Source: an uncultured Pseudomonas sp.
GTDB lineage: Bacteria > Pseudomonadota > Gammaproteobacteria > Pseudomonadales > Pseudomonadaceae
Assembly: GCA_966191535.1 (NCBI GenBank)
Contig: CBIGPF010000017.1
Coordinates: 27,425 to 51,424 of the forward strand
DNA length: 24,000 bases
Direction: 5' to 3'
Shown: piece by piece, positions 2,966 through 21,392 of the stretch
Layout: every line of letters starts with the position of its first letter
Position numbering within the stretch: the stretch's first letter is position 1
Position numbers and translations under genes: made by a program
The notes under the pieces: model-generated
Seen by the model: only the letters and a program-made list of their open reading frames with translations
Told to the model about the DNA's origin: nothing
The model's database searches: none

Positions 2966-3100
2966 ACGTTCTTTGCGATGGCGCAGGAAGCGCCATCGGT
3001 GCGGTCGCCGCCCGGGAGGCGGCTGCACTAGGGGCCCGGAGGGACCCCGCGCAAGCCACGGCGGTCAGGGACGACCGCCGCGGACTGCACCTCTGACGAA

Positions 3101-5424: not shown

Positions 5425-7932
5425 TCAATCGACGTCCTTCTTCTTGCGGGCGCGTTCTTTCTCCACAGGTGCCTTTTCCACCGGCACCTTTTCTGCCTTC
5501 GGCTTGCTGGCGGGCTTGGCGGCGGCGGGCTCCTTGGCCGGCTTCTCCTTCTCTTCCTCGTCCATGCCCAGCTCGGAGATTTCCTTCAGGCGTTCGACGA
5601 CACGGGCGTTGACGCTGCCCTTGGGGAAGTGGCCCTTGGCGTCCGGCGCACCGGCCGGCTCGCCGACCAGCAGGCTCAGCGCCTCGTCGGCCTGGCGCAC
5701 GGCGTAGATGTGGAACTGACCGTTGCGAACAGCCTGCAGCACGCGCTCGTCGAGCATCAGGGTGGCGACGTTGGCGCGCGGGATGATCACACCCTGCTCG
5801 CCGGTCAGGCCACGCGCTTCGCACAGGCGGAAGAAGCCTTCGATCTTCTCGTTGACCCCGCCGACCGCCTGCACCTCACCGAACTGGTTGATCGAGCCGG
5901 TGATGGCGAAGCATTGGCGCAGCGGCGTGCGCGACAGGGCGGAAATCAGCGTGCAGACCTCGCCCAGCGAGGCGCTGTCGCCGTCCACGTAGCCGTAGGA
6001 CTGCTCCAGGGCGATGCTTGCGGAAATCTCCAGGGGGAACTCCTGGGCGTAGCGGCTGCCGAGGTAGCCGGTGAGGATCATCACGCCCTTGGAGTGGATC
6101 GGCTGGCCGAGGTTGACCTCGCGCTCGATGTCGACGATGCCGCTGCCGCCCGGATAGACGGTGGCGGAGATGCGTGCCGGCATGCCGAAGGCGGAGTCGC
6201 CGACTTCCAGCACGGTCAGGCCGTTGCACTTGCCCACCGCGGCGCCTTCGCTGTCGATCAGGATGATGCCGGCGAGGATGTCGTCGAGAATTCGCGCCGA
6301 CACACGGCCGGTGCGGGTTTCCTTGGCTTTCAGGGCCCGCTCGATGTGCCCGAGGTCGGTCACTTCCTGGCCTGCCAGCTGGCGGATGAAGTCCGCTTCG
6401 CTGACCAGCTGGAACAGATCGCCGATGCGCGCCGAGAGGCGCCCCTGGTGTTCCGCCAGCCGGGCGCTGTAGGTAGCCAGGCGCGCCACGGCCTCACGGG
6501 TGAGCGGCGCCAGGCCCTCTTCCGAGGTGCGGGTCTTGAGCAACTGGGCGAACTGCTCGAGGCTGTCCTCGGCGAGGGGGATGTCCTCGTCGAAGTCCAC
6601 CAGTACGCGGAACATCTCCTGGAAGTCCGGGTCGAGGTCCTGCAGCGTGTAGTAGATCTGCCGCGAACCGATGATGATCACCTTGATGTTCAGCGGGATC
6701 ACCTGGGGCGTCAGGCTCATGGCGGTCAGGCGACCAAGCTCGGCCAGGGGCGATTCCATCTTCAGCTGGCGCGATTGCAGCGCGCGCTTGAGGGCGTCCC
6801 AGACGAACGGCTCGCCCAGCAGCTTCTCTGCCTCCAGCACCAGGAAGCCGCCGTTGGCGCGGTGCAGTGCGCCGGGGCGCAGCTGACGGTAGCTGGTGTA
6901 GAGCGCGCCCTGGTCGGAGGCGTACTCGATGCGGCCGAACAGGTTGTCGTAGGTCGGGTGCGACTCGAACACCACCGGCGCGCCGCTGGTGGCGTGGTGG
7001 CCGATCGCCTGGTTCGGCGCGTACTGCTCCTCCAGGCCCTGCTTGCGTTGCGGGTCGGTGCGCTCGGCATCCACCAGTTGATCGACCACAGTCTTCAGCA
7101 GGTTGAGCTGCATGGCCTGCAGGTAGGCACTGACCCCGGAGTTGTTGTTGTACTTCTCCACCAGCGGCGCCAGCAGCGGCTGCAGCGCCAGGGTGATGGT
7201 TTCCTCGTTGAGCTGGCGCAACTGGTTGCTTGACTCGCGCTTCCACTGCGGCAGGCTGGAAAGCTCCTCGTTAAGGTGCTCCTCCAGGTCGGCGATGTCG
7301 GCGTGGAAGCGCTCGCGCTCCTCCTCCGGCAGCTGGGCGAAATCGGCTTCGTCCAGCGCCTTGCCGTCCTTCATCGGCGTGAAGGCGATGTTGGAGCTGT
7401 CGCGATAGAGGGCAACTTCCTTCTCCAGCGCCAGGCGCTCGACGGTGTCCAGGGCCTTGTCGTAACGCTGGTTGAAGGCGCGGTCGATGGCGCTCTTCTT
7501 CTGTTGGTAGGCCGGGTTCTCGAATACCGAGGGGAAGGTGGAGAGCAGGTTGTCGATCAGGTGATCGATATCGGTGCCGAACTCGGCGGCGCTGCCCGGT
7601 GGCAGCTCGATCACGCGGGGCTCGCGCGAATCATCGAAATTGTTGACGTAGACCCAGTCGGCCGGCGTCGGCAGGCGCTTGCCCTCGGCCTTCAGGTAAC
7701 GCTGCACGAACGAGAAGCGACCGGTACCCGGCTCGCCCATGACGAACACGTTGTAACCCGGACGCGGCATTGCCACGCCGAACTGCAGCGCCTCGACCGC
7801 GCGCTCCTGTCCGAGCACGCCCAGGAAAGGCTCCAGTTCTTCGGTGGTCTTGAAGGGAAACTGTTCGGGGGTGAAGGGGCGGGTCAGTTCATCGGGCGCC
7901 AGGCGCAGGCCGGCAGCAACGGAATCGGGCAT
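5425..7932 (-). CDS. Lon-like (LonC-type) protease: AAA-like domain with long helical insertion, C-terminal S16 Ser-Lys protease domain, basic Lys/Pro/Ala tail
   Basis: 835 aa. P-loop-like [14 protein letters not shown]. Long coiled-coil-like insertion. Lon protease motifs [11 protein letters not shown] (Ser) and [11 protein letters not shown] (Lys). Tail [44 protein letters not shown]. Confidence 0.88.
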
Positions 7933-11046: not shown

Positions 11047-12102
11047 TCAGTCCAGGTAGGCCGCCACTTCCTCGGCACTGAGGAAACGCACGAGCTCCAC
11101 CGATGGCTGATGCGCATCATGCAGGCGGTCGGCGAAACCCGACCAGGAGCGCGACACCCCCTCTTCGGTATCCAGCGCGATCAGCACGCAGTGGCCGTGC
11201 TTGCGGCTGTTGCTGCGCAGCGGTGCCTCGCCCCACGCCCAGGCCAGGCTGTTGACCAGCTCGCCCTTCTCGAAGGCGAATACCTGCAGCCACAGGTATT
11301 GCGCGCTGTCATCACGCGGCACGTCGACCGACGCGACTGGCGCCGCAACCTGCAACCCGAGTCGCTCGCCATGGGCAGCCAGCAGCGGTTGCAGCAGGGA
11401 GAACGCATGGAAGTTGCAGTTGATGCCCTGCGCACTCACCACCAGCCCCGTGCGTGTCGTCGGCAGGACCACCACCAGCTCGTCCTCGTAGCTCAACGCC
11501 GCCGCGTGATCGAGGAAATGCAGGTTCTCGAAGGGCAGCGTGGTGTTGGATTTCACCATCGCGTCGATGTCGCGCGCCAGTTCGCCGGCGGCCAGGAAGT
11601 CGCGGTGATTCTCCCGCGAGCGCATCAGCATGGTCATCAGCGGCAGCACCAGCAGATCGACCGCAGCGTGCGCGCTGTCGATCCGAAATGACTGCGCCGG
11701 CGTCAGGCTGTCGAGTTGCGCACGGACCTGCCGGGCAGTGGCCTGTGCGTCCTCGTCGTCCTCCACCTCCTCGTCAGCGCAGTAGGGGCGCAGTAGCGCG
11801 AGCGCTCGCCCCAGCGCCTCGAGCAGCGCAGTGAAGGCAACACGCGGACTGGCGCCGCCTTCCACCCAACTGCCGCAGAACAGCGCCAGCAGCGATGCGC
11901 GGTTGGGATTGAGCTCGGGAAACAGTGCCGCGCACTGGGCGAGCAGCGTTTCTGCAAGGGGCGTCCCCAGGGTGTCGCGATACAGCTCACGGACATCGGA
12001 GCGCTGGACGAAGTCCTGCGCTTCGACCTGATCCTCCGGCGCCTCCACCGGCTGGCACAGGAACTCCACCAGCGACGCCGGCAAACCTGTCGCCAGCGTC
12101 AT
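11047..12102 (-). CDS. Hypothetical protein (351 aa), third gene of the NADAR-SUKH cassette
   Basis: Start MTLATGLPASLVEF... chosen because its ATG (12100-12102) overlaps the upstream stop (12099-12101) as ATGA. The 395-aa ORF-track version adds an Arg-rich extension. No motif recognised. Confidence 0.6.
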   Translation of the reverse strand: MTLATGLPASLVEFLCQPVEAPEDQVEAQDFVQRSDVRELYRDTLGTPLAETLLAQCAALFPELNPNRASLLALFCGSWVEGGASPRVAFTALLEALGRALALLRPYCADEEVEDDEDAQATARQVRAQLDSLTPAQSFRIDSAHAAVDLLVLPLMTMLMRSRENHRDFLAAGELARDIDAMVKSNTTLPFENLHFLDHAAALSYEDELVVVLPTTRTGLVVSAQGINCNFHAFSLLQPLLAAHGERLGLQVAAPVASVDVPRDDSAQYLWLQVFAFEKGELVNSLAWAWGEAPLRSNSRKHGHCVLIALDTEEGVSRSWSGFADRLHDAHQPSVELVRFLSAEEVAAYLD

Positions 12103-13040
12103 GCCACGTCTCCGTCGAGTTGATACTCCGCAACGCCCTGCTCGGCGAACCACTGGATCACCGCCTCGCGCTGCATCACCCGCGCATGCACCGGTCCATT
12201 GCCGCCGCCGGTCAGCAACTGGCCCAGGTCGCAACCCTGGGCGCGCAGTTGCTCCAGCAACTCGATATCACTGCTGCGCACTGCGTGGGTCAGCGCCAGG
12301 CGCTGCAACACTCCCACGCCGGCGATATTTCCCTGCTTCAGCGCCGCACGCCAATCGCGCACCAGCGGTCGCAGCGAATCCTGCAACTGCTGCGCCAGCG
12401 CTTCGCCCTCGGCGCCCGAGGCGGCCAGTTCATCCAGGGCTTCGAGCAACTCCTGCCCGGCGTCCGCGCCCTCGGCAAACGGGTCTTCGTCAAAGCCCAG
12501 CAGTGCGAACAGGCCGTTCAGATCGTCGGCCACCCGGGTCAGTGCGTCCTCGTGCAAGCGCAGCGGCCAGGCCGGCGGCAGCGCGCGACTCCAGGCGTAG
12601 ATGGCGCCGAACTCTTCCGGCTCGACACAGACGTAGACCCGCTCCAGGTACTCGAAACCGCCGATGGGCAGGAAGCCAACGCGGCCGTCCCACTCCTGGC
12701 CGTTCTCCTCGGCGACTTCCGCGGCGCACTCCTGCTCATGTTCCAGCCAGCCCCACAGATCGCGGTAGCCGTCGCTGTCCGGGTAGAACAGCTCGTTGAA
12801 CGAGTACGGATGCAGATGGCCGTCATAGTCAACGCACAGTTCGTAATCCAGGCTGCCACCGAAGGTGCAGCGCCACAGGGCGACCAGTTCCGGCGGCAGC
12901 TTGCTACGCAGGCGCAACTCGACCTCCGCGAGCTGGGCGTCGTTGATCGGTGGCTGTGCATCGTGGATGATGCGCCCGGCGAAGCAGGCCAGGCGATGCT
13001 CACGCAGCAGTTGCTGCTGCGCCGGTGTGAAATCAGGCAT
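12099..13040 (-). CDS. SMI1/KNR4 (SUKH-1) family protein with C-terminal ankyrin-like repeat(s)
   Basis: 313 aa. N-terminal LRSKLPPELVALWRCTFGGSL...FLPIGGFEYLERVYVCV fits the SUKH pattern. The C-terminal segment LALTHAVRSSDIELLEQLRAQGCDLGQLL...PVHARVMQREAVIQWFAEQG is ankyrin-like. AAGGAGG SD lies inside the upstream gene, and there is an 8-nt start/stop overlap. Confidence 0.65.
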   Translation of the reverse strand: MPDFTPAQQQLLREHRLACFAGRIIHDAQPPINDAQLAEVELRLRSKLPPELVALWRCTFGGSLDYELCVDYDGHLHPYSFNELFYPDSDGYRDLWGWLEHEQECAAEVAEENGQEWDGRVGFLPIGGFEYLERVYVCVEPEEFGAIYAWSRALPPAWPLRLHEDALTRVADDLNGLFALLGFDEDPFAEGADAGQELLEALDELAASGAEGEALAQQLQDSLRPLVRDWRAALKQGNIAGVGVLQRLALTHAVRSSDIELLEQLRAQGCDLGQLLTGGGNGPVHARVMQREAVIQWFAEQGVAEYQLDGDVA

Positions 13041-13602
13041 TGCCCCCCTCCTTGCGCAGCACAGCGCGCACGTTCATCAGGGCAACGCCCAGCAGGTTCA
13101 ACCCGCGCCAGCGCGCCGGATTGCCCGCATCGGGATGATCGACCGCCAGGCCGATACCCCAGATCGCATCCACCGGGCTGGCCTCCACCAGCACGCGATC
13201 GCCCGTGCCCAGCAGGAATTCGCGCAAGGCCGGGTTCTGCCCGAACTTGGCGTGATTGGCGCGGCTCACGATGGCCAGGCGTTCGGCATCCCAGGTGGCC
13301 TCGTCGAAACCGCGGATCTCACGGCCGATCGACTTCGCCTCGGCCGGCGAGCGCGCCGCAAGAATCCTCGCCAGCGCCGCCTCGTCACCAAACAGCCGGG
13401 CCTTGCCGGCCATCATGTAGTGCTCGGCGCTGCCGTAGGTCTCGCCGTCGATCTCGAAGTCTGCCTCGAACCACTGGCTGAAGCAGCTCTTGTCGACGTC
13501 CGCGGAGCGCTTGGGGCGATGCCCCCAGAAGTACACGTACTTGAACGCTTCGCCCGCCTCGATGCGTCGGCACAGCTGCTCGACTGTCATCGGTTCTTCC
13601 AT
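13033..13602 (-). CDS. NADAR (YbiA/DUF1768) family protein
   Basis: 189 aa from MEEPMTVEQL... with AAGGAG 6 nt upstream. Blocks align by eye to E. coli YbiA: SAEHYMMAGKARLF vs SEHYFQAQKF, VEASPVDAIWGIG vs VEHTENDAYWGDG, GLNLLGVALMNVR vs GKNRLGYLLMELR. Confidence 0.75.
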   Translation of the reverse strand: MEEPMTVEQLCRRIEAGEAFKYVYFWGHRPKRSADVDKSCFSQWFEADFEIDGETYGSAEHYMMAGKARLFGDEAALARILAARSPAEAKSIGREIRGFDEATWDAERLAIVSRANHAKFGQNPALREFLLGTGDRVLVEASPVDAIWGIGLAVDHPDAGNPARWRGLNLLGVALMNVRAVLRKEGGNA

Positions 13603-13637
13603 GATCGGCTCCTTGCCGCTACCACAAAACGCCGATT

Positions 13638-15254
13638 CTAACGCACCCCGTCGCTGATACCGGCCCAATCCAGGCCGAAGCGCGCCAGGTACTTGCGCAG
13701 GCGGTCGGCGTCGTTGGGGTTCTGCTTCTCCTGGCGCGAGACAGCGAACAGCTGCCGGCCAGCATCAGACAGGTTGCGTGCCTGCCGGCAGACATCGACC
13801 ACCGCTTCCAGCTGCACGCGGTCGAACAGGTCCAGCGCCTCGACGCCCTCTTCCCCCAGCAAGCGATCCAGCAGGCTCGACGTCTGGGTAGCACCCCAGG
13901 AGCGGCGCAGCCGGCCGATCTCCTCCTCCACCAGCACCTCGTCGATCCGTCCACTGTCGGCCAGGGTCGCCATGCGCGTGATGGACGCCGACAGCTCGCG
14001 GAAGTTGCCACTCCACAGCGCCTGCGCCGAGTTGGCGAACGCCAGGTAGCGCGTGCGCGCCTCACGGTTGAAGCGCACCAGCCGCCCTTGCTCGCGAGCG
14101 TGGCGCTCCAGCTCGAAGTCGATGTTCGGCTCGATGTCCTCACGACGCCCAGCCAACCCCGGCAGGTCGAACGTCCAGAGGTTGATGCGGGCGAACAGGT
14201 CCTCGCGGAACAGCCCCTCGGCGACGCGCTCGCGCAGATCGCGATGGGTGCCGGCGATCAGCTGGAAGTCGCTCCCCACCTCGCGGTCCGAGCCCAGCGG
14301 GAAGAAGCGTTTTTCCTCGATGGCCTTGAGTAGCATCGCCTGCTCGTCCAGGCCCAGCTCGCCAATCTCGTCGAGAAACAGCATGCCGCCATCCGCCGCA
14401 CGCAGCAGGCCTTCGCGGGCGTTCTGCGCGCCGGTGAAGGCGCCCTTGATGTGACCGAACAGCGCAGACATGGCGCCGTCGCCGCGCAAGGTCGCGCAGT
14501 TCACCTCGACGAAGCGGCCCTGGAACTGGTGCCGCGCTCGCTTGAGTTCGTAGACGCGGCGGGCCAGGAACGACTTGCCGGCGCCAGTCGGGCCGATCAG
14601 CAGCATCGGCGCGCGGGAGCGCCCGGCGACCCGCTCGATCTGTTCGATGGAGCGGTTGAATTCGGCGTTGCGCGTGGCGATGCCGGACTTGAGGAAGGCC
14701 AGGCTTTCTTCCTGCTCGCGGCGGAAGCGCGTGGCGATACGGTCGTAACGCGACAGATCGAGGTCGATGACCGCGACAGTCCCTTCCGGCTGCCGCGCCT
14801 CGTCCTGGCGCCGCGACGGCGAGGCCTGCACCAGCCGCGCCGGCAGATAGCGCGCCTCGGTGAGGAGGAACCAGCAGATCTGCGCGACGTGGGTCCCGGT
14901 GGTGATGTGCACCAGGTAGTCCTCGTGCTCGGTATCGAAGGCATAACCGCCGACGAAATCATGCAGCGCACCGTAGACCTCCTCGAAGTCCCACGGATTG
15001 CGCAGCGCCATAGGCTGCAGGCGCACCTCGGTCTCCGGCGAGACGAGCCGAACGTCAGCGGCAATGCGCTCGGCCAGCCCGACATCCCGCGCATCCAGCC
15101 CGTGGATCAACTCCAGGCGGTCGACCAGCAAGTCCTGCTGCTGGCACAGGCCGACCGTGGGCCGCCACTTCTGCCAGCGCGCCGCGCCCTTGCCGACGCG
15201 ATCGAGGGTGGAACCGAGGAAGCCGATGGCGACAGTCTTGCGTCCTGCTGGCAT
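13638..15254 (-). CDS. rtcR: Sigma54-dependent transcriptional activator RtcR (N-terminal CARF-like sensor, AAA+ core, C-terminal HTH)
   Basis: 538 aa. Walker A GPTGAGKS, sigma54-contact motif GAFTGA, Walker B LFLDEIGEL. The N-terminus MPAGRKTVAIGFLGSTLD is typical of RtcR rather than a receiver domain. Divergent from an rsr/rtcB/rtcA operon. Confidence 0.92.
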   Translation of the reverse strand: MPAGRKTVAIGFLGSTLDRVGKGAARWQKWRPTVGLCQQQDLLVDRLELIHGLDARDVGLAERIAADVRLVSPETEVRLQPMALRNPWDFEEVYGALHDFVGGYAFDTEHEDYLVHITTGTHVAQICWFLLTEARYLPARLVQASPSRRQDEARQPEGTVAVIDLDLSRYDRIATRFRREQEESLAFLKSGIATRNAEFNRSIEQIERVAGRSRAPMLLIGPTGAGKSFLARRVYELKRARHQFQGRFVEVNCATLRGDGAMSALFGHIKGAFTGAQNAREGLLRAADGGMLFLDEIGELGLDEQAMLLKAIEEKRFFPLGSDREVGSDFQLIAGTHRDLRERVAEGLFREDLFARINLWTFDLPGLAGRREDIEPNIDFELERHAREQGRLVRFNREARTRYLAFANSAQALWSGNFRELSASITRMATLADSGRIDEVLVEEEIGRLRRSWGATQTSSLLDRLLGEEGVEALDLFDRVQLEAVVDVCRQARNLSDAGRQLFAVSRQEKQNPNDADRLRKYLARFGLDWAGISDGVR

Positions 15255-15265
15255 GAAAAACGCCT

Positions 15266-15312
15266 CTATCTATTTGGATAACATCTTATCTTTTCATATC
15301 TATTCATGGATA
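15266..15312. promoter_or_regulatory. Candidate upstream activator sites (two TATCTATT-N-GGATA repeats)
   Basis: CTATCTATTTGGATA (15266-15280) and ATATCTATTCATGGATA (15296-15312). TATCTATT recurs exactly 30 bp apart, and each copy is an imperfect TATC...GATA inverted repeat. The sites lie about 125-170 bp upstream of the predicted sigma54 start. Confidence 0.35.
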
Positions 15313-15369
15313 GAAAAAGCCCTCCTGAATAATCGAATATTTTATTTTTAAATAAATTTAATCCTTAAA

Positions 15370-15382
15370 AATCAAATATTTA
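15370..15382 (+). promoter_or_regulatory. IHF-binding-site match
   Basis: AATCAAATATTTA fits WATCAANNNNTTR exactly. It lies between the upstream repeats and the -24/-12 element, in the most AT-rich stretch of the window. Confidence 0.5.
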
Positions 15383-15411
15383 ATAAAAATTAAAAGCCCC
15401 GAAATCAAAAC

Positions 15412-15427
15412 TGGCACGCTGCCTGCT
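15412..15427 (+). promoter_or_regulatory. Sigma54 (-24/-12) promoter of the rsr-rtcB-rtcA operon
   Basis: TGGCACGCTGCCTGCT has GG at 15413-15414 and GC at 15425-15426 with canonical spacing (consensus TGGCAC-N5-TTGCW). It is about 40 nt upstream of the rsr ATG and adjacent to the divergent sigma54 activator gene. Confidence 0.8.
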
Positions 15428-15468
15428 CTATCTCTGGCACCACCAACGAAACAGAGCGAGACGGCAAG

Positions 15469-17019
15469 ATGGCCAACACCCGACTGTTCAACACCCTCGA
15501 TGCCCGCCTGCCGGCCATCGACGCCTGCAACCAGAACGGAGCGGGCGCCTATGCCTACGGCGCACGTCATCAACTGGCGCAGCTGGCAGTCACCGGTTGC
15601 CTGAACCAGACCTACTACACCGATGCCCAGGATCAGCTGGATCGTGTGCTGGCCCTGGCCGGTGAGTTGGATGCCGCCTTCGTGACCCGTACCGCGATCT
15701 ACGCCCGTCAGCAGGGCCACATGAAAGACATGCCGGCATTGCTGGTAGCGGCGCTGGCCGCGCAACGCTCGTCTCTGCTGCCGGTCGCCTTCGCCAAGGT
15801 GATCGACAACGGCAAGATGCTGCGCACCTTCGTGCAGATCCTGCGCAGCGGCGCAACAGGCCGTAAGTCGCTGGGTTCGCAACCCAAGCGGCTGGTGCAG
15901 GACTGGCTGAACACCGCCAGCGAGCGCCACCTGCTGCAGGCCGCCGTAGGTAACCAGCCGTCGCTGGCGGACCTGGTGAAGATGGTCCACCCCAAGCCGA
16001 ACTCGGCCTGGCGTGAAGCCTTCTTTGCCTGGCTGCTCGGCAAGCCGGCAGCCGCCGACGCCCTGCCGCCGCTGACGCGGGACCTGCTGGCCTTCCGCAG
16101 CGGCGCCAGCGATGCCCTGCCGGATGTGCCGCACCTGCTGCTGGGCGACCGTCAGTTGTCTGCACAGCAATGGGCTGAGCTGGGTCGTCGCATGGGCTGG
16201 CACGCGTTGCGGATGAACCTGAACACCCTGGCACGCCACGGTGCCCTGTCCTTGCCGGGCGTGGCGGATGAGCTGGCAGGCCGGCTAGCCGATGCGCAGG
16301 CAGTGGCAAAGGCGCGGGTCTACCCGTACCAGTTGCTGGCGGCCTATCGCATGGCCGGCGCGGACGTGCCGCAGGTCATCCGTAACGCCTTGCAGGACGC
16401 CCTGGAGCATTCGCTGCAGAACGTCCCGGCGCTGAAAGGTTCGGTGGTTGTGTGCCCGGACGTGTCCGGCTCCATGGGCAGCCCGGTGACGGGTTACCGC
16501 CAGGGAGCGACGACCGCGGTGCGCTGCATCGACGTCGCGGCCCTGGTAGCAGCGGCGATCCTACGCCAGCAGCCACTGGCACGGGTAATGCCGTTCGAGC
16601 GCGACGTGGTGAACGTGCAGCTCAACCCGCGTGACAGCGTGATGAGCAACGCCGAAAAACTGGCTGCCATCGGCGGCGGCGGCACCAACTGCTCCGCGCC
16701 GCTGGCACGGCTGGCTGACGAGCGCGCCAAGGTGGATACGCTGATCCTGGTTTCGGACAACGAATCCTGGATCGATGGAAAGCGCCACGGCGCCACACAG
16801 ACGCTGCACCAGTGGGAGCGCATCAAACGCGTCAACCCGCAGGCCCGGATGATCTGCATCGACATCCAGCCTTACGGCACGACGCAGGCGAAGGATCGCC
16901 AAGACATCCTCAACGTCGGTGGTTTTGGCGATGCGGTGTTCGATGTGATGGCGCAGTTCGCCGACGGTCGTTACGACGCCCGGCACTGGGTACAGTTGAT
17001 TGAGTCGATGGAGATCTGA
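15469..17019 (+). CDS. rsr: Ro60-related protein Rsr (TROVE domain + vWA/MIDAS domain)
   Basis: 516 aa. The N-terminal two-thirds is helical-repeat (TROVE-like: YAYGARHQLAQLAVTGCLNQTYY...MVHPKP). The C-terminal vWA domain has the MIDAS motif VCPDVSGSMGS and later LILVSDNES. The context (rtcR, Y-RNA-like RNAs, rtcB, rtcA) matches the Salmonella rsr locus. Confidence 0.88.
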   Translation: MANTRLFNTLDARLPAIDACNQNGAGAYAYGARHQLAQLAVTGCLNQTYYTDAQDQLDRVLALAGELDAAFVTRTAIYARQQGHMKDMPALLVAALAAQRSSLLPVAFAKVIDNGKMLRTFVQILRSGATGRKSLGSQPKRLVQDWLNTASERHLLQAAVGNQPSLADLVKMVHPKPNSAWREAFFAWLLGKPAAADALPPLTRDLLAFRSGASDALPDVPHLLLGDRQLSAQQWAELGRRMGWHALRMNLNTLARHGALSLPGVADELAGRLADAQAVAKARVYPYQLLAAYRMAGADVPQVIRNALQDALEHSLQNVPALKGSVVVCPDVSGSMGSPVTGYRQGATTAVRCIDVAALVAAAILRQQPLARVMPFERDVVNVQLNPRDSVMSNAEKLAAIGGGGTNCSAPLARLADERAKVDTLILVSDNESWIDGKRHGATQTLHQWERIKRVNPQARMICIDIQPYGTTQAKDRQDILNVGGFGDAVFDVMAQFADGRYDARHWVQLIESMEI

Positions 17020-17024
17020 GAAGT

Positions 17025-17052
17025 CGTGCTCCGCCAATGAGGGCGGAGCACG
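17025..17052 (+). other. Perfect 11-bp hairpin immediately after the rsr stop (no U-tract)
   Basis: CGTGCTCCGCC (17025-17035), loop AATGAG, GGCGGAGCACG (17042-17052). It starts 6 nt after the TGA. It is followed by CAACGAAUUG, so it is not a canonical terminator. Confidence 0.7.
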
Positions 17053-17064
17053 CAACGAATTGAA

Positions 17065-17187
17065 TTTCGCGGCGTCATGAATGCCGTCGGGACTACAACG
17101 GACAAGTCCAGGCCGGCACTGCCGGCACGAGCCTTCCGCATCACGCTTGCGTGAAGTCCCGGCGACCCTTGTCATGACGAAGCGAGG
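17065..17187 (+). ncRNA. Y-RNA-like module 0 (YrlB-like: Y-type stem/loop/stem, no tRNA-like elements)
   Basis: S1 GUCAUGA (17074-17080) pairs with UCAUGAC (17172-17178) and is extended by UUUCGC:GCGAGG after a 2x2 loop. Internal loop AUGCC / GACCCUUG. S2 GUCGGGACU (17086-17094) pairs with AGUCCCGGC (17155-17163). The interior has hairpins GCCGGC-ACU-GCCGGC (17112-17126) and UCACGC-UU-GCGUGA (17141-17154). Confidence 0.6.
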
Positions 17188-17271
17188 CACGAATGCCGAC
17201 AGGTGTACAGGGTTCAGCTGGTTCGATTCCAGCCCGCAGCGATGCGGATCACTTGTCTCCCTTGTCGTGCC
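17186..17271 (+). ncRNA. Y-RNA-like module 1 (Y-type stems + T-arm/acceptor minihelix, no D arm)
   Basis: S1 GGCACGA (17186-17192) pairs with UCGUGCC (17265-17271). Loop AUGCC / UCCCUUG. S2 GACAGGUG (17198-17205) pairs with CACUUGUC (17250-17257). T arm GCUGG-UUCGAUU-CCAGC (17217-17233). Acceptor-like hairpin CCGCA-GCGA-UGCGG (17234-17247). Confidence 0.6.
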
Positions 17272-17289
17272 ACCCTTGTTACAGCGTTA

Positions 17290-17421
17290 TGCGACGAATG
17301 CCGGTGGAACTACACCCTTCCACGGTCGAGATACGGGTTCGAGTCCCGTCGGCTCCACTATCAGGGGGCCGTAGTTCAATGGCAGAACACGAAAATACGT
17401 TTCACCATCCTTGTCGTCGCA
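17290..17421 (+). ncRNA. YrlA-like Y RNA module 2 (permuted tRNA-like domain)
   Basis: S1 GCGACGA (17291-17297) pairs with UCGUCGC (17414-17420). Loop AUGCC / AUCCUUG. S2 GGUGGAA (17303-17309) pairs with UUUCACC (17400-17406). T arm ACGGG-UUCGAGU-CCCGU (17333-17349). Acceptor CGGCUCC (17350-17356) pairs with GGGGCCG (17365-17371) and is closed by a loop. Then UA, then D arm GUUC-AAUGGCA-GAAC (17374-17388). Confidence 0.7.
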
Positions 17422-17449
17422 CCTATTCACCCCGCCAGGCCGGCGGGCA

Positions 17450-17557
17450 GGCAACGAATGCCTGGGGCAGTACATCGGGTCGCGGGTTCGAACCCCGCTC
17501 CGCTCGCGCGGGTAGCTCAGTCGGTAGAGCAGATCTGTCCCTCAACTCGTCGTTGCC
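17450..17557 (+). ncRNA. YrlA-like Y RNA module 3 (permuted tRNA-like domain)
   Basis: S1 GGCAACGA (17450-17457) pairs with UCGUUGCC (17550-17557). Loop AUGCC(U) / UCAACUCG. S2 GGGGCAG (17464-17470) pairs with CUGUCCC (17535-17541). T arm GCGGG-UUCGAAC-CCCGC (17482-17498). Acceptor UCCGC-UCGC-GCGGG (17499-17512). Then UA, then D arm GCUC-AGUCGGUA-GAGC (17515-17530). Confidence 0.72.
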
Positions 17558-17582
17558 CCGGCCACCCATGAATTTTCGGCAT

Positions 17583-17710
17583 TGCAGTGGCGAATGCCGG
17601 TGGGACTACAGGACGGAAAGGTTGCGGGTTCGACTCCCGTCGGCTCCCTGGAGTCGTAGCTCAACCGGATAGAGCGCGCCGCATGTTTCACCACAACTCG
17701 TCGCCACGCA
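17583..17710 (+). ncRNA. YrlA-like Y RNA module 4 (permuted tRNA-like domain)
   Basis: S1 GUGGCGA (17587-17593) pairs with UCGCCAC (17701-17707), extended by UGC:GCA across a bulged A. Loop AUGCC / ACAACUCG. S2 GGUGGGA (17599-17605) pairs with UUUCACC (17686-17692). T arm GCGGG-UUCGACU-CCCGU (17624-17640). Acceptor CGGCUC(C)...(G)GAGUCG (17641-17656). Then UA, then D arm GCUC-AACCGGAUA-GAGC (17659-17675). The module ends 25 nt before the rtcB ATG. Confidence 0.72.
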
Positions 17711-17735
17711 GGACCAGTGATACAGGAAAACAGAC

Positions 17736-18962
17736 ATGCAAACGAAAACCTTCCAACTGCTGGAAGTCGCCAACGGCAAACCGATCAAGCTCTGGACCCA
17801 GGGCGTGCCGGTGGAAGACGACGCCAGGCAGCAACTGATGAATACCGCGAAGATGCCCTTCATCTTCAAGCACCTGGCCGTGATGCCGGACGTGCACCTG
17901 GGCAAGGGGTCGACCATCGGCAGCGTGATTCCCACCAAGGGCGCCATCATCCCGGCGGCCGTGGGCGTGGATATCGGCTGCGGGATGATCGCCGCGCGCA
18001 CCTCGCTGGTGGCCTCCGACCTGCCGGACAACCTGCACGGCCTGCGAACCGCCATCGAGAAAGCCGTGCCCCACGGGCGCAGCAACACCCGGGCAGGCCG
18101 CGATAAAGGCGCCTGGGAAAACGTGCCCGAGCATGCCGACGACGCCTGGCGCGCACTGGCCGGCCGCTTCAAGGTGATTACCGACAAGCACCCGAAACTG
18201 GAGAAGACCAACAACCGCAAGCACCTGGGAACCCTCGGTACCGGCAACCACTTCATCGAGGTCTGCCTCGACGAAGCGGACCGCGTCTGGTTCATGCTGC
18301 ACAGCGGCTCGCGCGGCGTGGGCAACGCCATCGGCAACCTGTTCATCGAACTGGCCCAGGCCGATATGCGCCAGCACATCGCCAACCTGCCGGACCGTGA
18401 CCTGGCCTACTTCGAGGAAGGCAGCCAGCACTTCGACGACTACGTGGAGGCCGTGGACTGGGCCCAGGACTTCGCCCGGCAGAACCGCGAGCTGATGATG
18501 CACTCGGTGATCGCGGCGGCGCGGCAGATCATCCGCAAGCCGTTCGAAGCGAGCCTGGAAGCGGTGAACTGCCACCACAACTACGTGCAGAAGGAACGCC
18601 ACTTCGGCGAAGAGGTACTGGTGACGCGCAAAGGCGCGGTGTCTGCGCAGAAGGGTCAGCTCGGCATCATTCCGGGATCGATGGGCGCACGCAGCTTCAT
18701 CGTTCGTGGCCTGGGCAACGAGGAAGCCTTCTGCTCGTGCAGCCACGGTGCCGGTCGCACCATGAGCCGCACCAAGGCGAAGAAGCTGTTCAGCGTCGAA
18801 GACCAGATTCGCGCCACCGCCCACGTCGAATGCCGCAAGGACGCCGACGTGATCGACGAGATCCCGATGGCCTACAAGGACATCGACGCCGTGATGGACG
18901 CCCAGCGCGAGCTGGTGGAAGTACTGCATACCCTGCGCCAGGTGGTCTGCGTGAAAGGATGA
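17736..18962 (+). CDS. rtcB: RNA-splicing ligase RtcB (3'-phosphate/5'-hydroxyl RNA ligase)
   Basis: 408 aa. Family motifs PDVHLGKGSTIGSV, GVDIGCGM, GTLGTGNHFIE, HSGSRGVGN, NCHHNY and SCSHGAGR (the site of the guanylylated His). AGGAAA SD 6 nt upstream. Confidence 0.95.
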   Translation: MQTKTFQLLEVANGKPIKLWTQGVPVEDDARQQLMNTAKMPFIFKHLAVMPDVHLGKGSTIGSVIPTKGAIIPAAVGVDIGCGMIAARTSLVASDLPDNLHGLRTAIEKAVPHGRSNTRAGRDKGAWENVPEHADDAWRALAGRFKVITDKHPKLEKTNNRKHLGTLGTGNHFIEVCLDEADRVWFMLHSGSRGVGNAIGNLFIELAQADMRQHIANLPDRDLAYFEEGSQHFDDYVEAVDWAQDFARQNRELMMHSVIAAARQIIRKPFEASLEAVNCHHNYVQKERHFGEEVLVTRKGAVSAQKGQLGIIPGSMGARSFIVRGLGNEEAFCSCSHGAGRTMSRTKAKKLFSVEDQIRATAHVECRKDADVIDEIPMAYKDIDAVMDAQRELVEVLHTLRQVVCVKG

Positions 18963-18971
18963 GGTGAAGAC

Positions 18972-19550
18972 ATGCTGCAACCCATGGAAAACCAGCGCAT
19001 GCAGGAACTGCGCAGCCGCCTGGAACAGGAACGCTGCGTCTTCGACTTCCGCGTGCTGACACTCGACCCGACCGCCACGCCCGGCGAGGCGGAACATCGC
19101 CTGGCGTTGCAGCTGCTATTCGAATCCATCCAGGAACGCGCACGCAAGTGGCAGGCGGACGTCATCGCCCGCCACCCGCAATACGCCACCCATGAATGGG
19201 CGGACCTGACGCCGGACCTGGCCAGGGCCCGCCCGCAGGCACTCGGTATCGAGGCGGTGCGCGAGCTGGGCCGCGACGACGGCCCGCTGTGCCGCGCCTT
19301 CCGCGACCCGCCCTACGGCACCCAGCTGCAGATCGCGGATTTCCGCGAATGGCTGCAGGCGCTGCGGCTGAATCCGGACGAAGGCCTGCAGGTGCTCGAC
19401 TGGGTCGGCGACGGCGATGCCGAGCCGCACCGCAGCAACTGGAGCTGCTACTTCGACGATGGCAAGGAATGGTGGGGCATCTGGTGCCTCACCCTGTACA
19501 ACCCGCGACGACGAACATTGTCCGCGCTGGCCGCCAGCGCGACGGACTGA
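18972..19550 (+). CDS. Hypothetical protein (192 aa) embedded in the rtc operon
   Basis: ORF MLQPMENQRMQELRSRLEQERCVFDF...WSCYFDDGKEWWGIWCLTLYNPRRR.... GAGGTG SD 6 nt upstream. It starts 9 nt after the rtcB stop. No family recognised. Confidence 0.6.
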   Translation: MLQPMENQRMQELRSRLEQERCVFDFRVLTLDPTATPGEAEHRLALQLLFESIQERARKWQADVIARHPQYATHEWADLTPDLARARPQALGIEAVRELGRDDGPLCRAFRDPPYGTQLQIADFREWLQALRLNPDEGLQVLDWVGDGDAEPHRSNWSCYFDDGKEWWGIWCLTLYNPRRRTLSALAASATD

Positions 19551-19569
19551 AAGAACAAGGAATGCCCCC

Positions 19570-20370
19570 ATGAACAGGGACGAACGACATCCGCTGCCCG
19601 CCGCCATGCGCGAACGGGTACTGGAGGAACTGGAAAGACTGGAACAGGAGCGCGGCGTCACCGTGCTCTACGCATGTGAATCCGGCAGCCGCGCCTGGGG
19701 CTTCGCCTCACCGGACAGCGACTACGACGTGCGCTTCGTCTACGTGCACCAGCCGGACTGGTACCTGCGCGTGGAAGAACCGCGCGACGTGCTGGAGCGC
19801 CCATTGACCGACGAGCTGGACCTTAGTGGCTGGGAGCTGCGCAAGACGCTGCGACTGCTGCGCAAATCCAACCCGACGCTGCTGGAGTGGCTGGACTCGC
19901 CGCTGGTGTACCGCAGCGAACCGGCAGCGACCGGAGGCCTGCGCCAGCTGGCGCGGGACTTCTACTCGCCCGCCGCGGCAAGGGCGCACTACCTGTCGAT
20001 GGCGAAGAAGAACTTCCGTGGCTATCTGCAGGGCGAAGCGGTTCGCTACAAGAAGTACCTCTACGTGCTGCGCCCGCTGTTGGCAGTGCGCTGGATCGAC
20101 CTGGGCCTCGGCATGCCGCCGATGGTCTTCGAGACGCTGATGCAAGCGACCCTCGACGACGCCACACAACGCGCCGAGGTCGAGGAACTGCTGGTACTCA
20201 AGCGCCAGGCGGTCGAGGCCGAATACGGTCCGGCGCGCCCAGCCCTGCACCGATTGATCGAGGGAGAACTGCAACGCGTGGAAGCCCTTGGCGCTCCACG
20301 TGGCGGCTGCCACGACACGGAGCGCCTGGACCGTTTCCTGCGCGAGCAGGTAAGGAAATACGCCAGATGA
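19570..20370 (+). CDS. Pol-beta-superfamily nucleotidyltransferase (RNA-ligase-associated RlaP-like, by recollection)
   Basis: 266 aa from MNRDERHPLPAAMRERV.... NTase signature YACESGSRAWGFASPDSDYDVRFVY (G-S ... DxD). Its stop TGA (20368-20370) overlaps the rtcA ATG (20367-20369). The ORF-track start at 19417 was rejected because it overlaps orf192 and has an Arg/Thr-rich extension. Confidence 0.72.
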   Translation: MNRDERHPLPAAMRERVLEELERLEQERGVTVLYACESGSRAWGFASPDSDYDVRFVYVHQPDWYLRVEEPRDVLERPLTDELDLSGWELRKTLRLLRKSNPTLLEWLDSPLVYRSEPAATGGLRQLARDFYSPAAARAHYLSMAKKNFRGYLQGEAVRYKKYLYVLRPLLAVRWIDLGLGMPPMVFETLMQATLDDATQRAEVEELLVLKRQAVEAEYGPARPALHRLIEGELQRVEALGAPRGGCHDTERLDRFLREQVRKYAR

Positions 20371-21392
20371 ACAGGAACCTCATCGAACTCGACGGCGCCG
20401 AAGGTGGCGGCCAGATTCTGCGCAGCGCACTGAGCCTGTCGATGATCACCGGCAAGGCGCTGCGCATCGTCAACATCCGTGGCCGCCGCTCGCGACCGGG
20501 ACTGCTGCGCCAGCACCTGACGGCCGTGCGCGCGGCGGCGGAAATCTGCGGCGCCGCGGTGGAAGGCGACGAGCTCGGCTCGCGCAGCCTGACCTTCCGC
20601 CCCGGCGCGATTCGCGGCGGCGACTATCGTTTCGCCATTGGCAGCGCGGGCAGTGCCGTGCTGGTCTTGCAGACGCTGCTGCCCGCCCTGCTGTTCGCCG
20701 ATGCGCCGAGCAGCCTGGCGATCAGCGGCGGCACGCACAATCCGCTGGCACCGCCGGCGGACTTCATCGAGCGCAGTTGGCTGCCGTTGCTACGGCGCAT
20801 GGGCGCGAAGGTCGACTTCGAGCTGCTGCGCCACGGATTCATGCCGGCAGGCGGCGGTGAGTTGCAGGTGTGTGCGGAGCCCGGCGAATTGCAGCCGCTG
20901 CATCTGCCGGAGACCGGAGGCGAGCGCTCGCGTTCGGCCCGCGCGCTACTGGCAGCCATTCCCGGTCACGTGGGGGATCGCGAGGTGGAAAAGGTGAAGC
21001 GGCATCAGGACTGGAAAGCCGCACACTCCGAGGTCGTCCGTCTTCCAGAGGACCAGGGCCCGGGCAACGCACTGCTGCTGGAGATCGAGTGCGAGCACTT
21101 GACCCTGGTGTTCTGCGCCTTCGGCCAGTCCGGCGTCAGCGCCGAGCGCGTCGCCAGCCAGGCGCTACGTCAGGCCGATGACTGGCGCCGCAGCGGCACC
21201 AGCGTCGAGGAACATCTCGCCGACCAGCTGCTACTGCCCATGGCACTGGCCGCCGGTGGCAGTTTCACCACGCCGGCGCTGAGCGATCATCTGCTGAGCA
21301 ACCGTGCAGTGATCGAAGCCTTCCTGCCGGTGCATATCGATTGCGAACCACGTGCCGCAGGCGGCCAGCACATCCGCATCACGCGGACTTGA
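20367..21392 (+). CDS. rtcA: RNA 3'-terminal phosphate cyclase RtcA
   Basis: 341 aa from MNRNLIELDGAEGGGQILRSALSLSMITGKALRIVNIRGRRSRPGLLRQH... (characteristic RtcA N-terminus). Also SGGTHNPLAPP and EEHLADQLLLPMALA (the region of the adenylylated His). The 501-aa ORF-track version is an out-of-context upstream extension. Confidence 0.93.
   Translation: MNRNLIELDGAEGGGQILRSALSLSMITGKALRIVNIRGRRSRPGLLRQHLTAVRAAAEICGAAVEGDELGSRSLTFRPGAIRGGDYRFAIGSAGSAVLVLQTLLPALLFADAPSSLAISGGTHNPLAPPADFIERSWLPLLRRMGAKVDFELLRHGFMPAGGGELQVCAEPGELQPLHLPETGGERSRSARALLAAIPGHVGDREVEKVKRHQDWKAAHSEVVRLPEDQGPGNALLLEIECEHLTLVFCAFGQSGVSAERVASQALRQADDWRRSGTSVEEHLADQLLLPMALAAGGSFTTPALSDHLLSNRAVIEAFLPVHIDCEPRAAGGQHIRITRT

Follow-up and report, generated by a model that had tools for sequence, protein, structure and literature searches.

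We analysed a stretch of 24,000 nt from an uncultured Pseudomonas sp. (GenBank assembly GCA_966191535.1, contig CBIGPF010000017.1, positions 27,425 to 51,424 of the forward strand), hereafter the window, with a focus on the 715-nt spacer between rsr, which encodes an orthologue of Ro60, and the RNA ligase gene rtcB. The spacer contains five tandem Y RNA-like modules, named A to E, rather than three or four. Modules C, D and E are unexceptional representatives of YrlA, a known family of bacterial Y RNAs that partner Ro60/Rsr, and each carries a circularly permuted tRNA-like domain. It is very probable that the spacer as a whole represents an array of five Y RNA-like modules in which C, D and E are paralogous YrlA-class Y RNAs that are co-transcribed and processed, with the tRNA-like end serving as the effector. 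An earlier note on this DNA had numbered the modules from 1 to 4; its module 1 corresponds to B, and its modules 2-4 to C, D and E.

Three YrlA-type Y RNAs between rsr and rtcB

Modules C to E are located 272-691 nt 3' of the rsr stop codon and on the same strand. Their parts are as follows.

17291..17423, + strand: module C, YrlA-type Y RNA; helix S1 17291-17297/17414-17420, helix S2 17303-17309/17400-17406
17333-17349, + strand: module C T arm, ACGGG-UUCGAGU-CCCGU
17350-17371, + strand: module C acceptor-like hairpin, CGGCUCC-ACUAUCAG-GGGGCCG, 7 bp (G3·U70, A73)
17372-17373, + strand: module C UA; 17374-17388, D arm GUUC-AAUGGCA-GAAC
17451..17559, + strand: module D, YrlA-type Y RNA; S1 17451-17457/17550-17556, S2 17464-17470/17535-17541
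17482-17498, + strand: module D T arm, GCGGG-UUCGAAC-CCCGC
17499-17512, + strand: module D hairpin, UCCGC-UCGC-GCGGG, 5 bp, one of them U·G
17513-17514, + strand: module D UA; 17515-17530, D arm GCUC-AGUCGGUA-GAGC
17587..17710, + strand: module E, YrlA-type Y RNA; S1 17587-17593/17701-17707, S2 17599-17605/17686-17692
17624-17640, + strand: module E T arm, GCGGG-UUCGACU-CCCGU
17641-17656, + strand: module E hairpin, CGGCUC-CCUG-GAGUCG, 6 bp
17657-17658, + strand: module E UA; 17659-17675, D arm GCUC-AACCGGAUA-GAGC

The anatomy that the earlier note had described was recovered on re-extraction. All three modules contain a 5-bp T stem with the loop UUCGAGU, UUCGAAC or UUCGACU, a loop-closed acceptor-like helix that directly abuts the T arm (7, 5 and 6 bp in C, D and E), and then UA and a D arm, so that the T arm precedes the D arm; this order holds to the base. 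The positions equivalent to U55 are 17339, 17488 and 17630. Each 7-bp S1 helix includes the motif GNCGAAN0-1G on its 5' strand (GACGAAUG, AACGAAUG and GGCGAAUG), and the YUAY consensus that follows the second helix reads CUAC in C, GUAC in D and CUAC in E. The Levitt pair between positions 15 and 48 is A15:U48 in C and E and G15:C48 in D. The sequence GGTTCGANNCC occurs four times on the + strand of the 24 kb (0.29 expected), every time within the rsr-rtcB spacer, and the D-arm pattern has two matches (0.00 expected), numbers well above those due to chance.

The connection between the tRNA-like core and the Y scaffold required two corrections. Stem S2 had been proposed to replace the anticodon stem. 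The anticodon arm is indeed gone, but the replacement is not direct, as S2 and the core are separated by a short anticodon-like helix, which measures 2-3 bp (C, UCG/CGA; D, AUC/GAU; E, CGG/CCG) and covaries in relatives. The distances from S2 to the T stem were measured as 23 nt in C, 11 nt in D and 18 nt in E, in agreement with the note, which had likened this variation to the class I and class II variable arms of tRNAs. That likeness did not hold up: the variable-loop equivalent (positions 44-48) is no longer than 4-5 nt in any of the modules (AGAU, GGGUC and AGGUU), and the length differences stem from insertions that lie 5' of the anticodon-like helix, right after the conserved YUAC, in the region termed V loop or V arm by Chen et al. 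2014 (PMC4201824). Because the extra length sits outside the variable-loop equivalent, the comparison with class II variable arms is not well founded. A V hairpin in module C (17314-17316 with 17324-17326) was considered as a class-II-like arm and rejected; it shows three cells with changes on both sides among 27 orthologues, lies 5' of the anticodon-like helix, and is a weakly supported candidate structure.

Membership in the YrlA family was assessed with the Rfam covariance model (RF02553), a check that the earlier note had proposed. The model matched all three modules and aligned to each over its full length (positions 1-114 of 114), with 79.4 bits for E (1e-18), 68.4 bits for D (2e-15) and 57.3 bits for C (3.1e-12; all local E-values). 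These values are far below the threshold of E < 5e-5 used by Chen et al., and the modules lie within 4 kb of the Ro60/Rsr gene on the same strand. They furthermore share the defining traits of YrlA, namely T and D stem-loops with a closed acceptor stem-loop between them, UA ahead of the D arm, the terminal-helix motif, YUAY, and the tertiary-contact nucleotides with a covarying 15:48 pair. Together, the full-length Rfam match, the position next to rsr, the covariation and the contact nucleotides bear out the proposed permuted tRNA mimicry of the Salmonella YrlA type on a Y scaffold.

Standard tRNA finders had been expected to miss these modules, and ARAGORN indeed called no tRNA gene in the window; none was called in the related modules of the 80 comparison loci described below. 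A canonical or permuted tRNA gene was rejected, as the acceptor helix is closed by a loop, there is no anticodon loop, with the S2/S1 stem in the place of the anticodon arm, and no ARAGORN call was obtained. We also rejected a two-piece transfer-messenger RNA (tmRNA; Rfam RF04321, tmRNA_permuted). Its match to module C reached 33.1 bits at a gathering score of 47 (E 7.6e-05) and spans only model positions 36-95 of 213, which correspond to the T arm and acceptor; a match of the Rfam tmRNA model to the same elements was likewise below threshold.

Covariation and tertiary contacts across Rsr loci

For comparison we assembled 80 Rsr loci from other species (labelled L001 onward). A covariance model, R1, was built from module E alone with a hand-written structure, and the remaining sequences were aligned to it with Infernal. 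A single module was used because two MAFFT alignments, one with all three modules and one with only D and E, misaligned the D arm or S2's 3' strand and were discarded. R1 gave 186 matches at E <= 0.01 in 81 sources (the window and the 80 loci), all of them on the rsr strand and downstream of rsr; module C scored 60.0 bits.

Covariation was evaluated on the best 150 matches, 142 of them distinct, in the alignment produced by the model. Since a model-fitted alignment favours the structure, the decisive comparison is the control with slid partners: standard pairs occupy 95.7% of cells, vs 37-61% when the partners are slid by 1-3 columns. Changes on both sides were found in 30 of 32 pairs, and none of 500 shuffles came up to these values. 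Support extends to all six helices, namely S1 (covarying in six of its seven pairs), S2, the 3-bp anticodon-like helix, and the T, acceptor and D stems, the last three with 99.3%, 93.6% and 98.7% paired cells, all with compensatory changes.

The nucleotides of the tRNA-type tertiary contacts were counted in the 103 distinct modules with both arms. The T loop follows U-U-C-R-A-N-Y, with U54 and R57 in 102 and U55, C56 and A58 in all 103 modules. A stands at the start of the D loop in 101 modules and at its end in 103 (A14 and A21), the U8-A9 junction reads UA in 83, and at the Levitt pair 15:48 there are 56 modules with G:C and 33 with A:U. As the contact nucleotides are kept and the Levitt pair switches, a tRNA-type tertiary fold is supported to the limit of what sequence comparison can provide.

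Some relatives carry variants of the domain. In the P. fluorescens group, L006, L012, L013, L021, L026-L028, L030, L031, L034, L035, L038 and L039 have a single full YrlA-type module, in which GG takes the place of the otherwise conserved U8-A9 junction and A:C or A:A is frequent at 15:48; this variant deviates from the contact rules of tRNA. Oxalobacteraceae loci (L050, L056, L059, L065, L071, L072, L074 and L075) show an extra stem-loop right after the D arm, for example CUGUGG-GUAA-CCACAG, which resembles an anticodon arm closed by a tetraloop; these modules are located ~1.2-1.5 kb or ~300 nt past rsr. A Rhodocyclaceae metagenome-assembled genome (L046, 5826-6703) has at least four tandem YrlA-type modules. 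One module each in L046 and L048 (5967-6080) has a 3-bp D stem, GCC-AAGCGGUCA-GGC, reminiscent of the D arms of class II tRNAs.

Conserved array architecture

Synteny of the modules in the order B-C-D-E extends across many lineages of Pseudomonas, and each module has its own orthologue. Module C is 96% identical to its counterpart in L001, but only 76-77% identical to module E, and this over ~60 nt. The types are recognisable by distinct signatures, C by its 7-bp acceptor stem, its 7-nt D loop and the long stretch inserted past CUAC, D by a minimal linker and a hairpin of ~5 bp with a tetraloop, and E by an 18-nt linker and a 9-nt D loop. In the alignment of module C orthologues, 97.9% of the cells are paired. 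Three full tRNA-like modules were found in 20 other loci; therefore the triple array is common and not peculiar to this window. Similarly, the Rfam YrlA model gave three or four tandem matches in L001, L004, L017, L046 and L076, and several of these matches exceed the gathering score. The number and order of the modules vary between lineages while rtcB remains unchanged, and type-specific orthologues recur in Betaproteobacteria.

The two remaining modules are Y RNA-like as well.

17074..17178, + strand: module A, Y RNA-like; terminal helix GUCAUGA/UCAUGAC, helix GUCGGGACU/AGUCCCGGC
17186..17271, + strand: module B, Y scaffold with T arm (minimum free energy fold)
17217-17233, + strand: module B T arm, GCUGG-UUCGAUU-CCAGC
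17234-17247, + strand: module B hairpin, CCGCA-GCGA-UGCGG, with a GNRA cap

Module A folds into the two scaffold helices without a T or D arm and matched R1 with 29.5 bits (E 3.7e-05). Among the 80 loci it has an orthologue only in L001. Its Rsr-site motif is altered to AUGAAUG, with a compensatory change on the opposite strand. Module B has no D arm; it is kept in 12 loci of Pseudomonas, where S2 and the hairpin show compensatory changes. It was tested as a YrlB of the Salmonella type (Rfam RF02565) and rejected with 27.2 bits at a gathering score of 97. Module B is thus a Y-like module with a T arm outside the Salmonella YrlB family.

The array is part of an RNA-repair operon

The genes that surround the array are listed below.

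13638..15254, - strand: rtcR, sigma-54-dependent activator of the RNA-repair operon (Pfam RtcR 5.5e-85, Sigma54_activat 2.9e-49)
15412..15427, + strand: sigma-54-type promoter-like site TGGCACGCTGCCTGCT, ~40 nt 5' of the rsr start codon
15469..17019, + strand: rsr, Ro60 orthologue of 516 aa and presumed protein partner of the Y RNAs (Pfam vWA_Ro60 7.6e-20, TROVE 1.4e-06)
17736..18962, + strand: rtcB, RNA ligase (Pfam RtcB 5.3e-133), starting 26 nt past the end of module E (17710)
18972-19550, + strand: conserved open reading frame of 192 aa between rtcB and rlaP
19417..20370, + strand: rlaP, RNA-repair nucleotidyltransferase of the Pol-beta family (Pfam PF10127 RlaP 4.2e-95)
20379..21392, + strand: rtcA, RNA 3'-phosphate cyclase, inside the open reading frame 19887-21392 (Pfam RTC 1.7e-78; NCBIfam 6.2e-139, residues 165-497)

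With a divergent rtcR, a sigma-54-like site, and rsr, Y RNAs, rtcB, rlaP and rtcA on one strand, the locus is an rsr-yrl-rtcBA RNA-repair operon of the type described in Salmonella (Hughes et al. 2020, PMC7790460), here in Pseudomonas; by analogy, it would be regulated by RtcR. The promoter-like site is of the GG-N10-GC type, differs from TGGCAC-N5-TTGCW by one mismatch and lies in the AT-rich divergent region between rtcR and rsr. Neither sigma-70-like promoters nor + strand terminators were found in 15200-19700. The rsr product matches D. radiodurans Rsr (PDB 2NVO) over its full length (E 2.6e-22), and its best Rsr match is that of P. delhiensis (95%). The gene rtcB lies 3' of the array in essentially all related loci. 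The true start of rlaP is probably later than the one listed above, because the domain begins at about residue 64 of the open reading frame; RlaP adds 1-2 nucleotides to RNA 3' ends (PMC12776372).

The 192-aa open reading frame had no match in Pfam or NCBIfam. Homologues occur at the same operon position in other Pseudomonas rtc operons, with 65-72% identity in L002, L008, L014 and L015 and ~37% in L016, L017, L019, L024, L029, L041 and L045. Almost all of these loci have arrays of three tRNA-like modules.

A strong hairpin, GUGCUCCGCC-AAUGAG-GGCGGAGCAC (17026-17051), begins 7 nt past the rsr stop codon. As it lacks a U tract, it is not terminator-like; it may act as a processing barrier or stabilise the 3' end of the rsr mRNA. 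The sequence directly 3' of it, GCAACGAAUUG, resembles the S1 motif of module D.

Two further observations concern the wider window. An RsmW small RNA, a member of the protein-sequestering Rsm/Csr family, is encoded at 2972-3092 on the + strand (Rfam 77.7 bits, gathering score 52); it is unrelated to the Y RNA array and indicates a Pseudomonas host. Beyond rtcR, the - strand encodes a NADAR-domain protein (13033-13668) and a SUKH/SMI1-KNR4 protein (12099-13040). Genes of these kinds are often tied to toxin or immunity and ADP-ribosylation systems.

Proposed function and alternative explanations

The array possesses neither its own promoter nor its own terminator. Its transcription most likely starts at the RtcR/sigma-54 promoter 5' of rsr. 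RtcR is activated by damaged tRNA (Hughes et al. 2020, PMC7790460), and a single transcript with rsr, the Y RNAs, rtcB, rlaP and rtcA would be made when damaged tRNA accumulates, provided that the induction known from other species applies here. Individual RNAs would be released from this transcript by cutting and trimming, and Rsr would stabilise them. By analogy, the terminal helix S1, with G-N-CGAAUG (GNCGAAUG) on its 5' strand, is the presumed binding site of Rsr (Ro60). The far end of modules C, D and E would fold into an L-shaped tRNA-like domain, with an elbow formed by the T and D loops and the 15:48 Levitt pair, and may act as the effector module by showing a tRNA elbow to a tRNA-binding partner. 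In this role it could connect Rsr with an enzyme, for example PNPase, or serve as a decoy that draws nucleases and modification enzymes directed at tRNA. The roles put forward in the literature are along the same lines, with a tether between Rsr and PNPase for the decay of structured RNA or a competitive decoy of tRNA-directed nucleases.

Several observations weigh against this interpretation. Only module E scores above the Rfam YrlA gathering score of 69, while D falls short by 0.6 and C by 11.7 bits. The minimum free energy fold of module D recovers the T, acceptor and D hairpins, whereas those of C and E are without the D arm, and the z-scores of single-sequence folding are unremarkable (-0.3 to -2.75). 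Therefore, single-sequence folding was not taken as evidence for the fold, and the cloverleaf-like structure rests on comparison and not on thermodynamics. Furthermore, matches to the sigma-54 consensus at one-mismatch stringency are not enriched over the whole window, so that the argument for the promoter-like site is carried by its position and context. Finally, the functional claims for this organism rest wholly on homology.

Two other explanations for the array were weighed. The structures might act mainly in cis, as a leader or intercistronic control of rtcB translation or as protection of the operon mRNA. Such a role would fit an array that occupies the whole spacer up to 26 nt before the rtcB start codon, without an internal promoter or terminator and with a strong hairpin near the rsr stop codon. 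We nevertheless consider it very improbable: the homologues of Salmonella and M. smegmatis exist as stable processed RNAs to which Rsr binds, each module is self-contained and closed with its own Rsr-site motif, the modules shift in number and order between lineages while rtcB stays, and a tRNA-type tertiary fold has no obvious function in cis. The modules might also be remnants of a decaying tandem tRNA cluster, pseudo-tRNAs with no present function, a view to which their tRNA-typical T and D arm sequences and the proposed origin of YrlA from dimeric tRNA transcripts (10.1101/312249) lend themselves. Decay is at odds with the covariation of S1 and S2, helices that are specific to the Y scaffold, and this effectively refutes the remnant explanation, to which we give almost no credence. 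The modules moreover have no anticodon arm, nothing in the spacer is called by ARAGORN, the type-specific orthologues keep their order across Pseudomonas and recur in Betaproteobacteria, and the adjacency to rsr is invariant. Processed YrlA-type Y RNAs with a tRNA-like effector end remain the preferred explanation.

Possible processing of module C

A third possibility concerns the fate of a single module type. Module C and its orthologues might be cut open by RNase P within the acceptor loop, then trimmed and provided with CCA, which would yield a two-piece Y RNA with a 5' half ending in ...CGGCUCCA(CCA) and a 3' half starting with GGGGCCG that alanyl-tRNA synthetase (AlaRS) might charge. G3·U70 and A73 are identity elements for AlaRS and are common to tmRNA. 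Their presence in the module C acceptor accounts for the sub-threshold tmRNA and tmRNA_permuted matches, which are confined to the T arm and acceptor of this module and speak for processing. The stem itself is of exactly 7 bp (GGGGCCG/CGGCUCC), with the G·U pair at 3:70, and is followed by A and then CUA. It may even be identical to the acceptor stem of the lineage's own tmRNA, a resemblance that was given no weight here. Among 128 modules scored, 35 have exactly 7 bp, typically with a 7-8-nt loop that starts with A. G3·U70 is kept in 13 other Pseudomonas orthologues, and L004 shows a compensatory change at 5:68; as these orthologues are closely related, retention of the G·U pair is weak evidence of selection. 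Budvicia L076 encodes CGGUUCC-ACCA-CUAU-GGGACCG, with both G3·U70 and a full ACCA. The only 7-bp case studied, M. smegmatis YrlA, is cleaved by RNase P and CCA-tailed in vivo (PMC4201824).

On the other side, G3·U70 is lineage-specific. C-type orthologues of the fluorescens lineage have C3-G70, 8-bp stems and GAAAA loops, and most betaproteobacterial 7-bp stems have other 3:70 pairs. CCA is not encoded in module C, which has ACUA instead, Salmonella YrlA is uncleaved (PMC4201824; PMC7790460), and the resemblance is possibly a relic of descent from tandem tRNA genes (10.1101/312249). We therefore regard processing of this kind as unlikely. G3·U70 was also considered as a general trait of 7-bp YrlA stems and rejected, as it occurs mainly in one Pseudomonas lineage and is scattered elsewhere. 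Somewhat more doubtful still is the wider speculation that B, C, D and E serve as distinct tRNA decoys, with C as a cryptic two-piece RNA that is opened by RNase P, completed by the CCA enzyme or RlaP and charged by AlaRS. If true, an aminoacylatable tRNA mimic would be tethered to Ro60 under RNA-damage stress.

The first YrlA-like module of L076 (Budvicia aquatica, 5660-5806) is the most tRNA-Ala-like member that we saw. It also has an extra hairpin after the D arm, at the position of an anticodon arm.

Comparison with known systems

The tRNA mimicry described here restates published knowledge of YrlA, and the locus adds another member to the family. Chen et al. 2014 defined the T, AS, D and V elements, with an example from Pseudomonas fulva (Fig. 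1C), and reported the full set of YrlA-like matches within 4 kb of rsr, 355 RNAs in 276 genomes (PMC4201824); multi-copy loci are thus already on record. Salmonella YrlA is modified by TruB and DusA (PMC4201824) and adopts the L-shape of tRNA in a crystal structure (PDB 6CU1; Wang et al. 2018, 10.1101/312249). The same study described YrlA RNAs as circularly permuted look-alikes of tRNA with closed acceptor loops of variable length. With the mimicry published in 2014, including Pseudomonas, and a crystal structure in 2018, the discovery value of the present locus is little.

Its value lies in annotation and as an experimental system. Two of the three YrlA copies and modules A and B are below the Rfam cut-offs and would go unannotated, and the spacer would then look like 715 nt of empty sequence within an RNA-repair operon. 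A conserved set of YrlA paralogues with stems of 7, 5 and 6 bp in the genetically tractable genus Pseudomonas is a convenient system for asking which partner binds the tRNA-like domain and whether the forms with 7 bp undergo the same processing as in M. smegmatis.

Among the known systems, Yrn1 and Yrn2 of Deinococcus radiodurans are likewise Rsr-bound and rsr-adjacent, possess a T arm and occur as several Y RNAs per precursor. In contrast to the modules, their T/D elements are oriented differently, they have no clear D arm, they map upstream of rsr, and with a two-strand Ro site they resemble metazoan Y RNAs. Two-piece tmRNA shares with the modules the order T arm, 3' acceptor strand, (CCA), intervening segment and 5' acceptor strand, and with module C also G3·U70 and A73; however, the modules have neither a tag reading frame nor pseudoknots, and they contain the full D arm that tmRNA lacks. 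Circularly permuted tRNA genes were reportedly found in red and green algae by Soma et al. in 2007. In these, too, the 5' half comes after the 3' half and a loop initially closes the acceptor, but they mature into real tRNAs with an anticodon loop, where the modules have the Rsr-binding S2/S1 stem instead.

M. smegmatis offers a counterpart for two modules. Its YrlA has a 7-bp acceptor stem, as module C does, which makes it a substrate of RNase P and of CCA addition, and its YrlB has a T arm and no D arm, like module B; in contrast to the present locus, the M. smegmatis Y RNAs occur upstream of rsr without being under RtcR. The putative YrlA of Pseudomonas fulva, from the same genus-level group, is predicted next to rsr, as here. 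YrlA of Salmonella Typhimurium (RF02553; Chen et al. 2013 and 2014, Wang et al. 2018) is likewise located 3' of rsr and 5' of rtcB under RtcR and has the GNCGAAUG terminal helix, YUAY, T arm, closed acceptor, UA and D arm with the same contact nucleotides. Its acceptor stem has 6 bp, as in module E. The present locus differs from that of Salmonella in its stems of 7, 5 and 6 bp and in the presence of rlaP in the operon, and where Salmonella has one YrlA and one YrlB, it contains three YrlA-type and two other Y-like modules.

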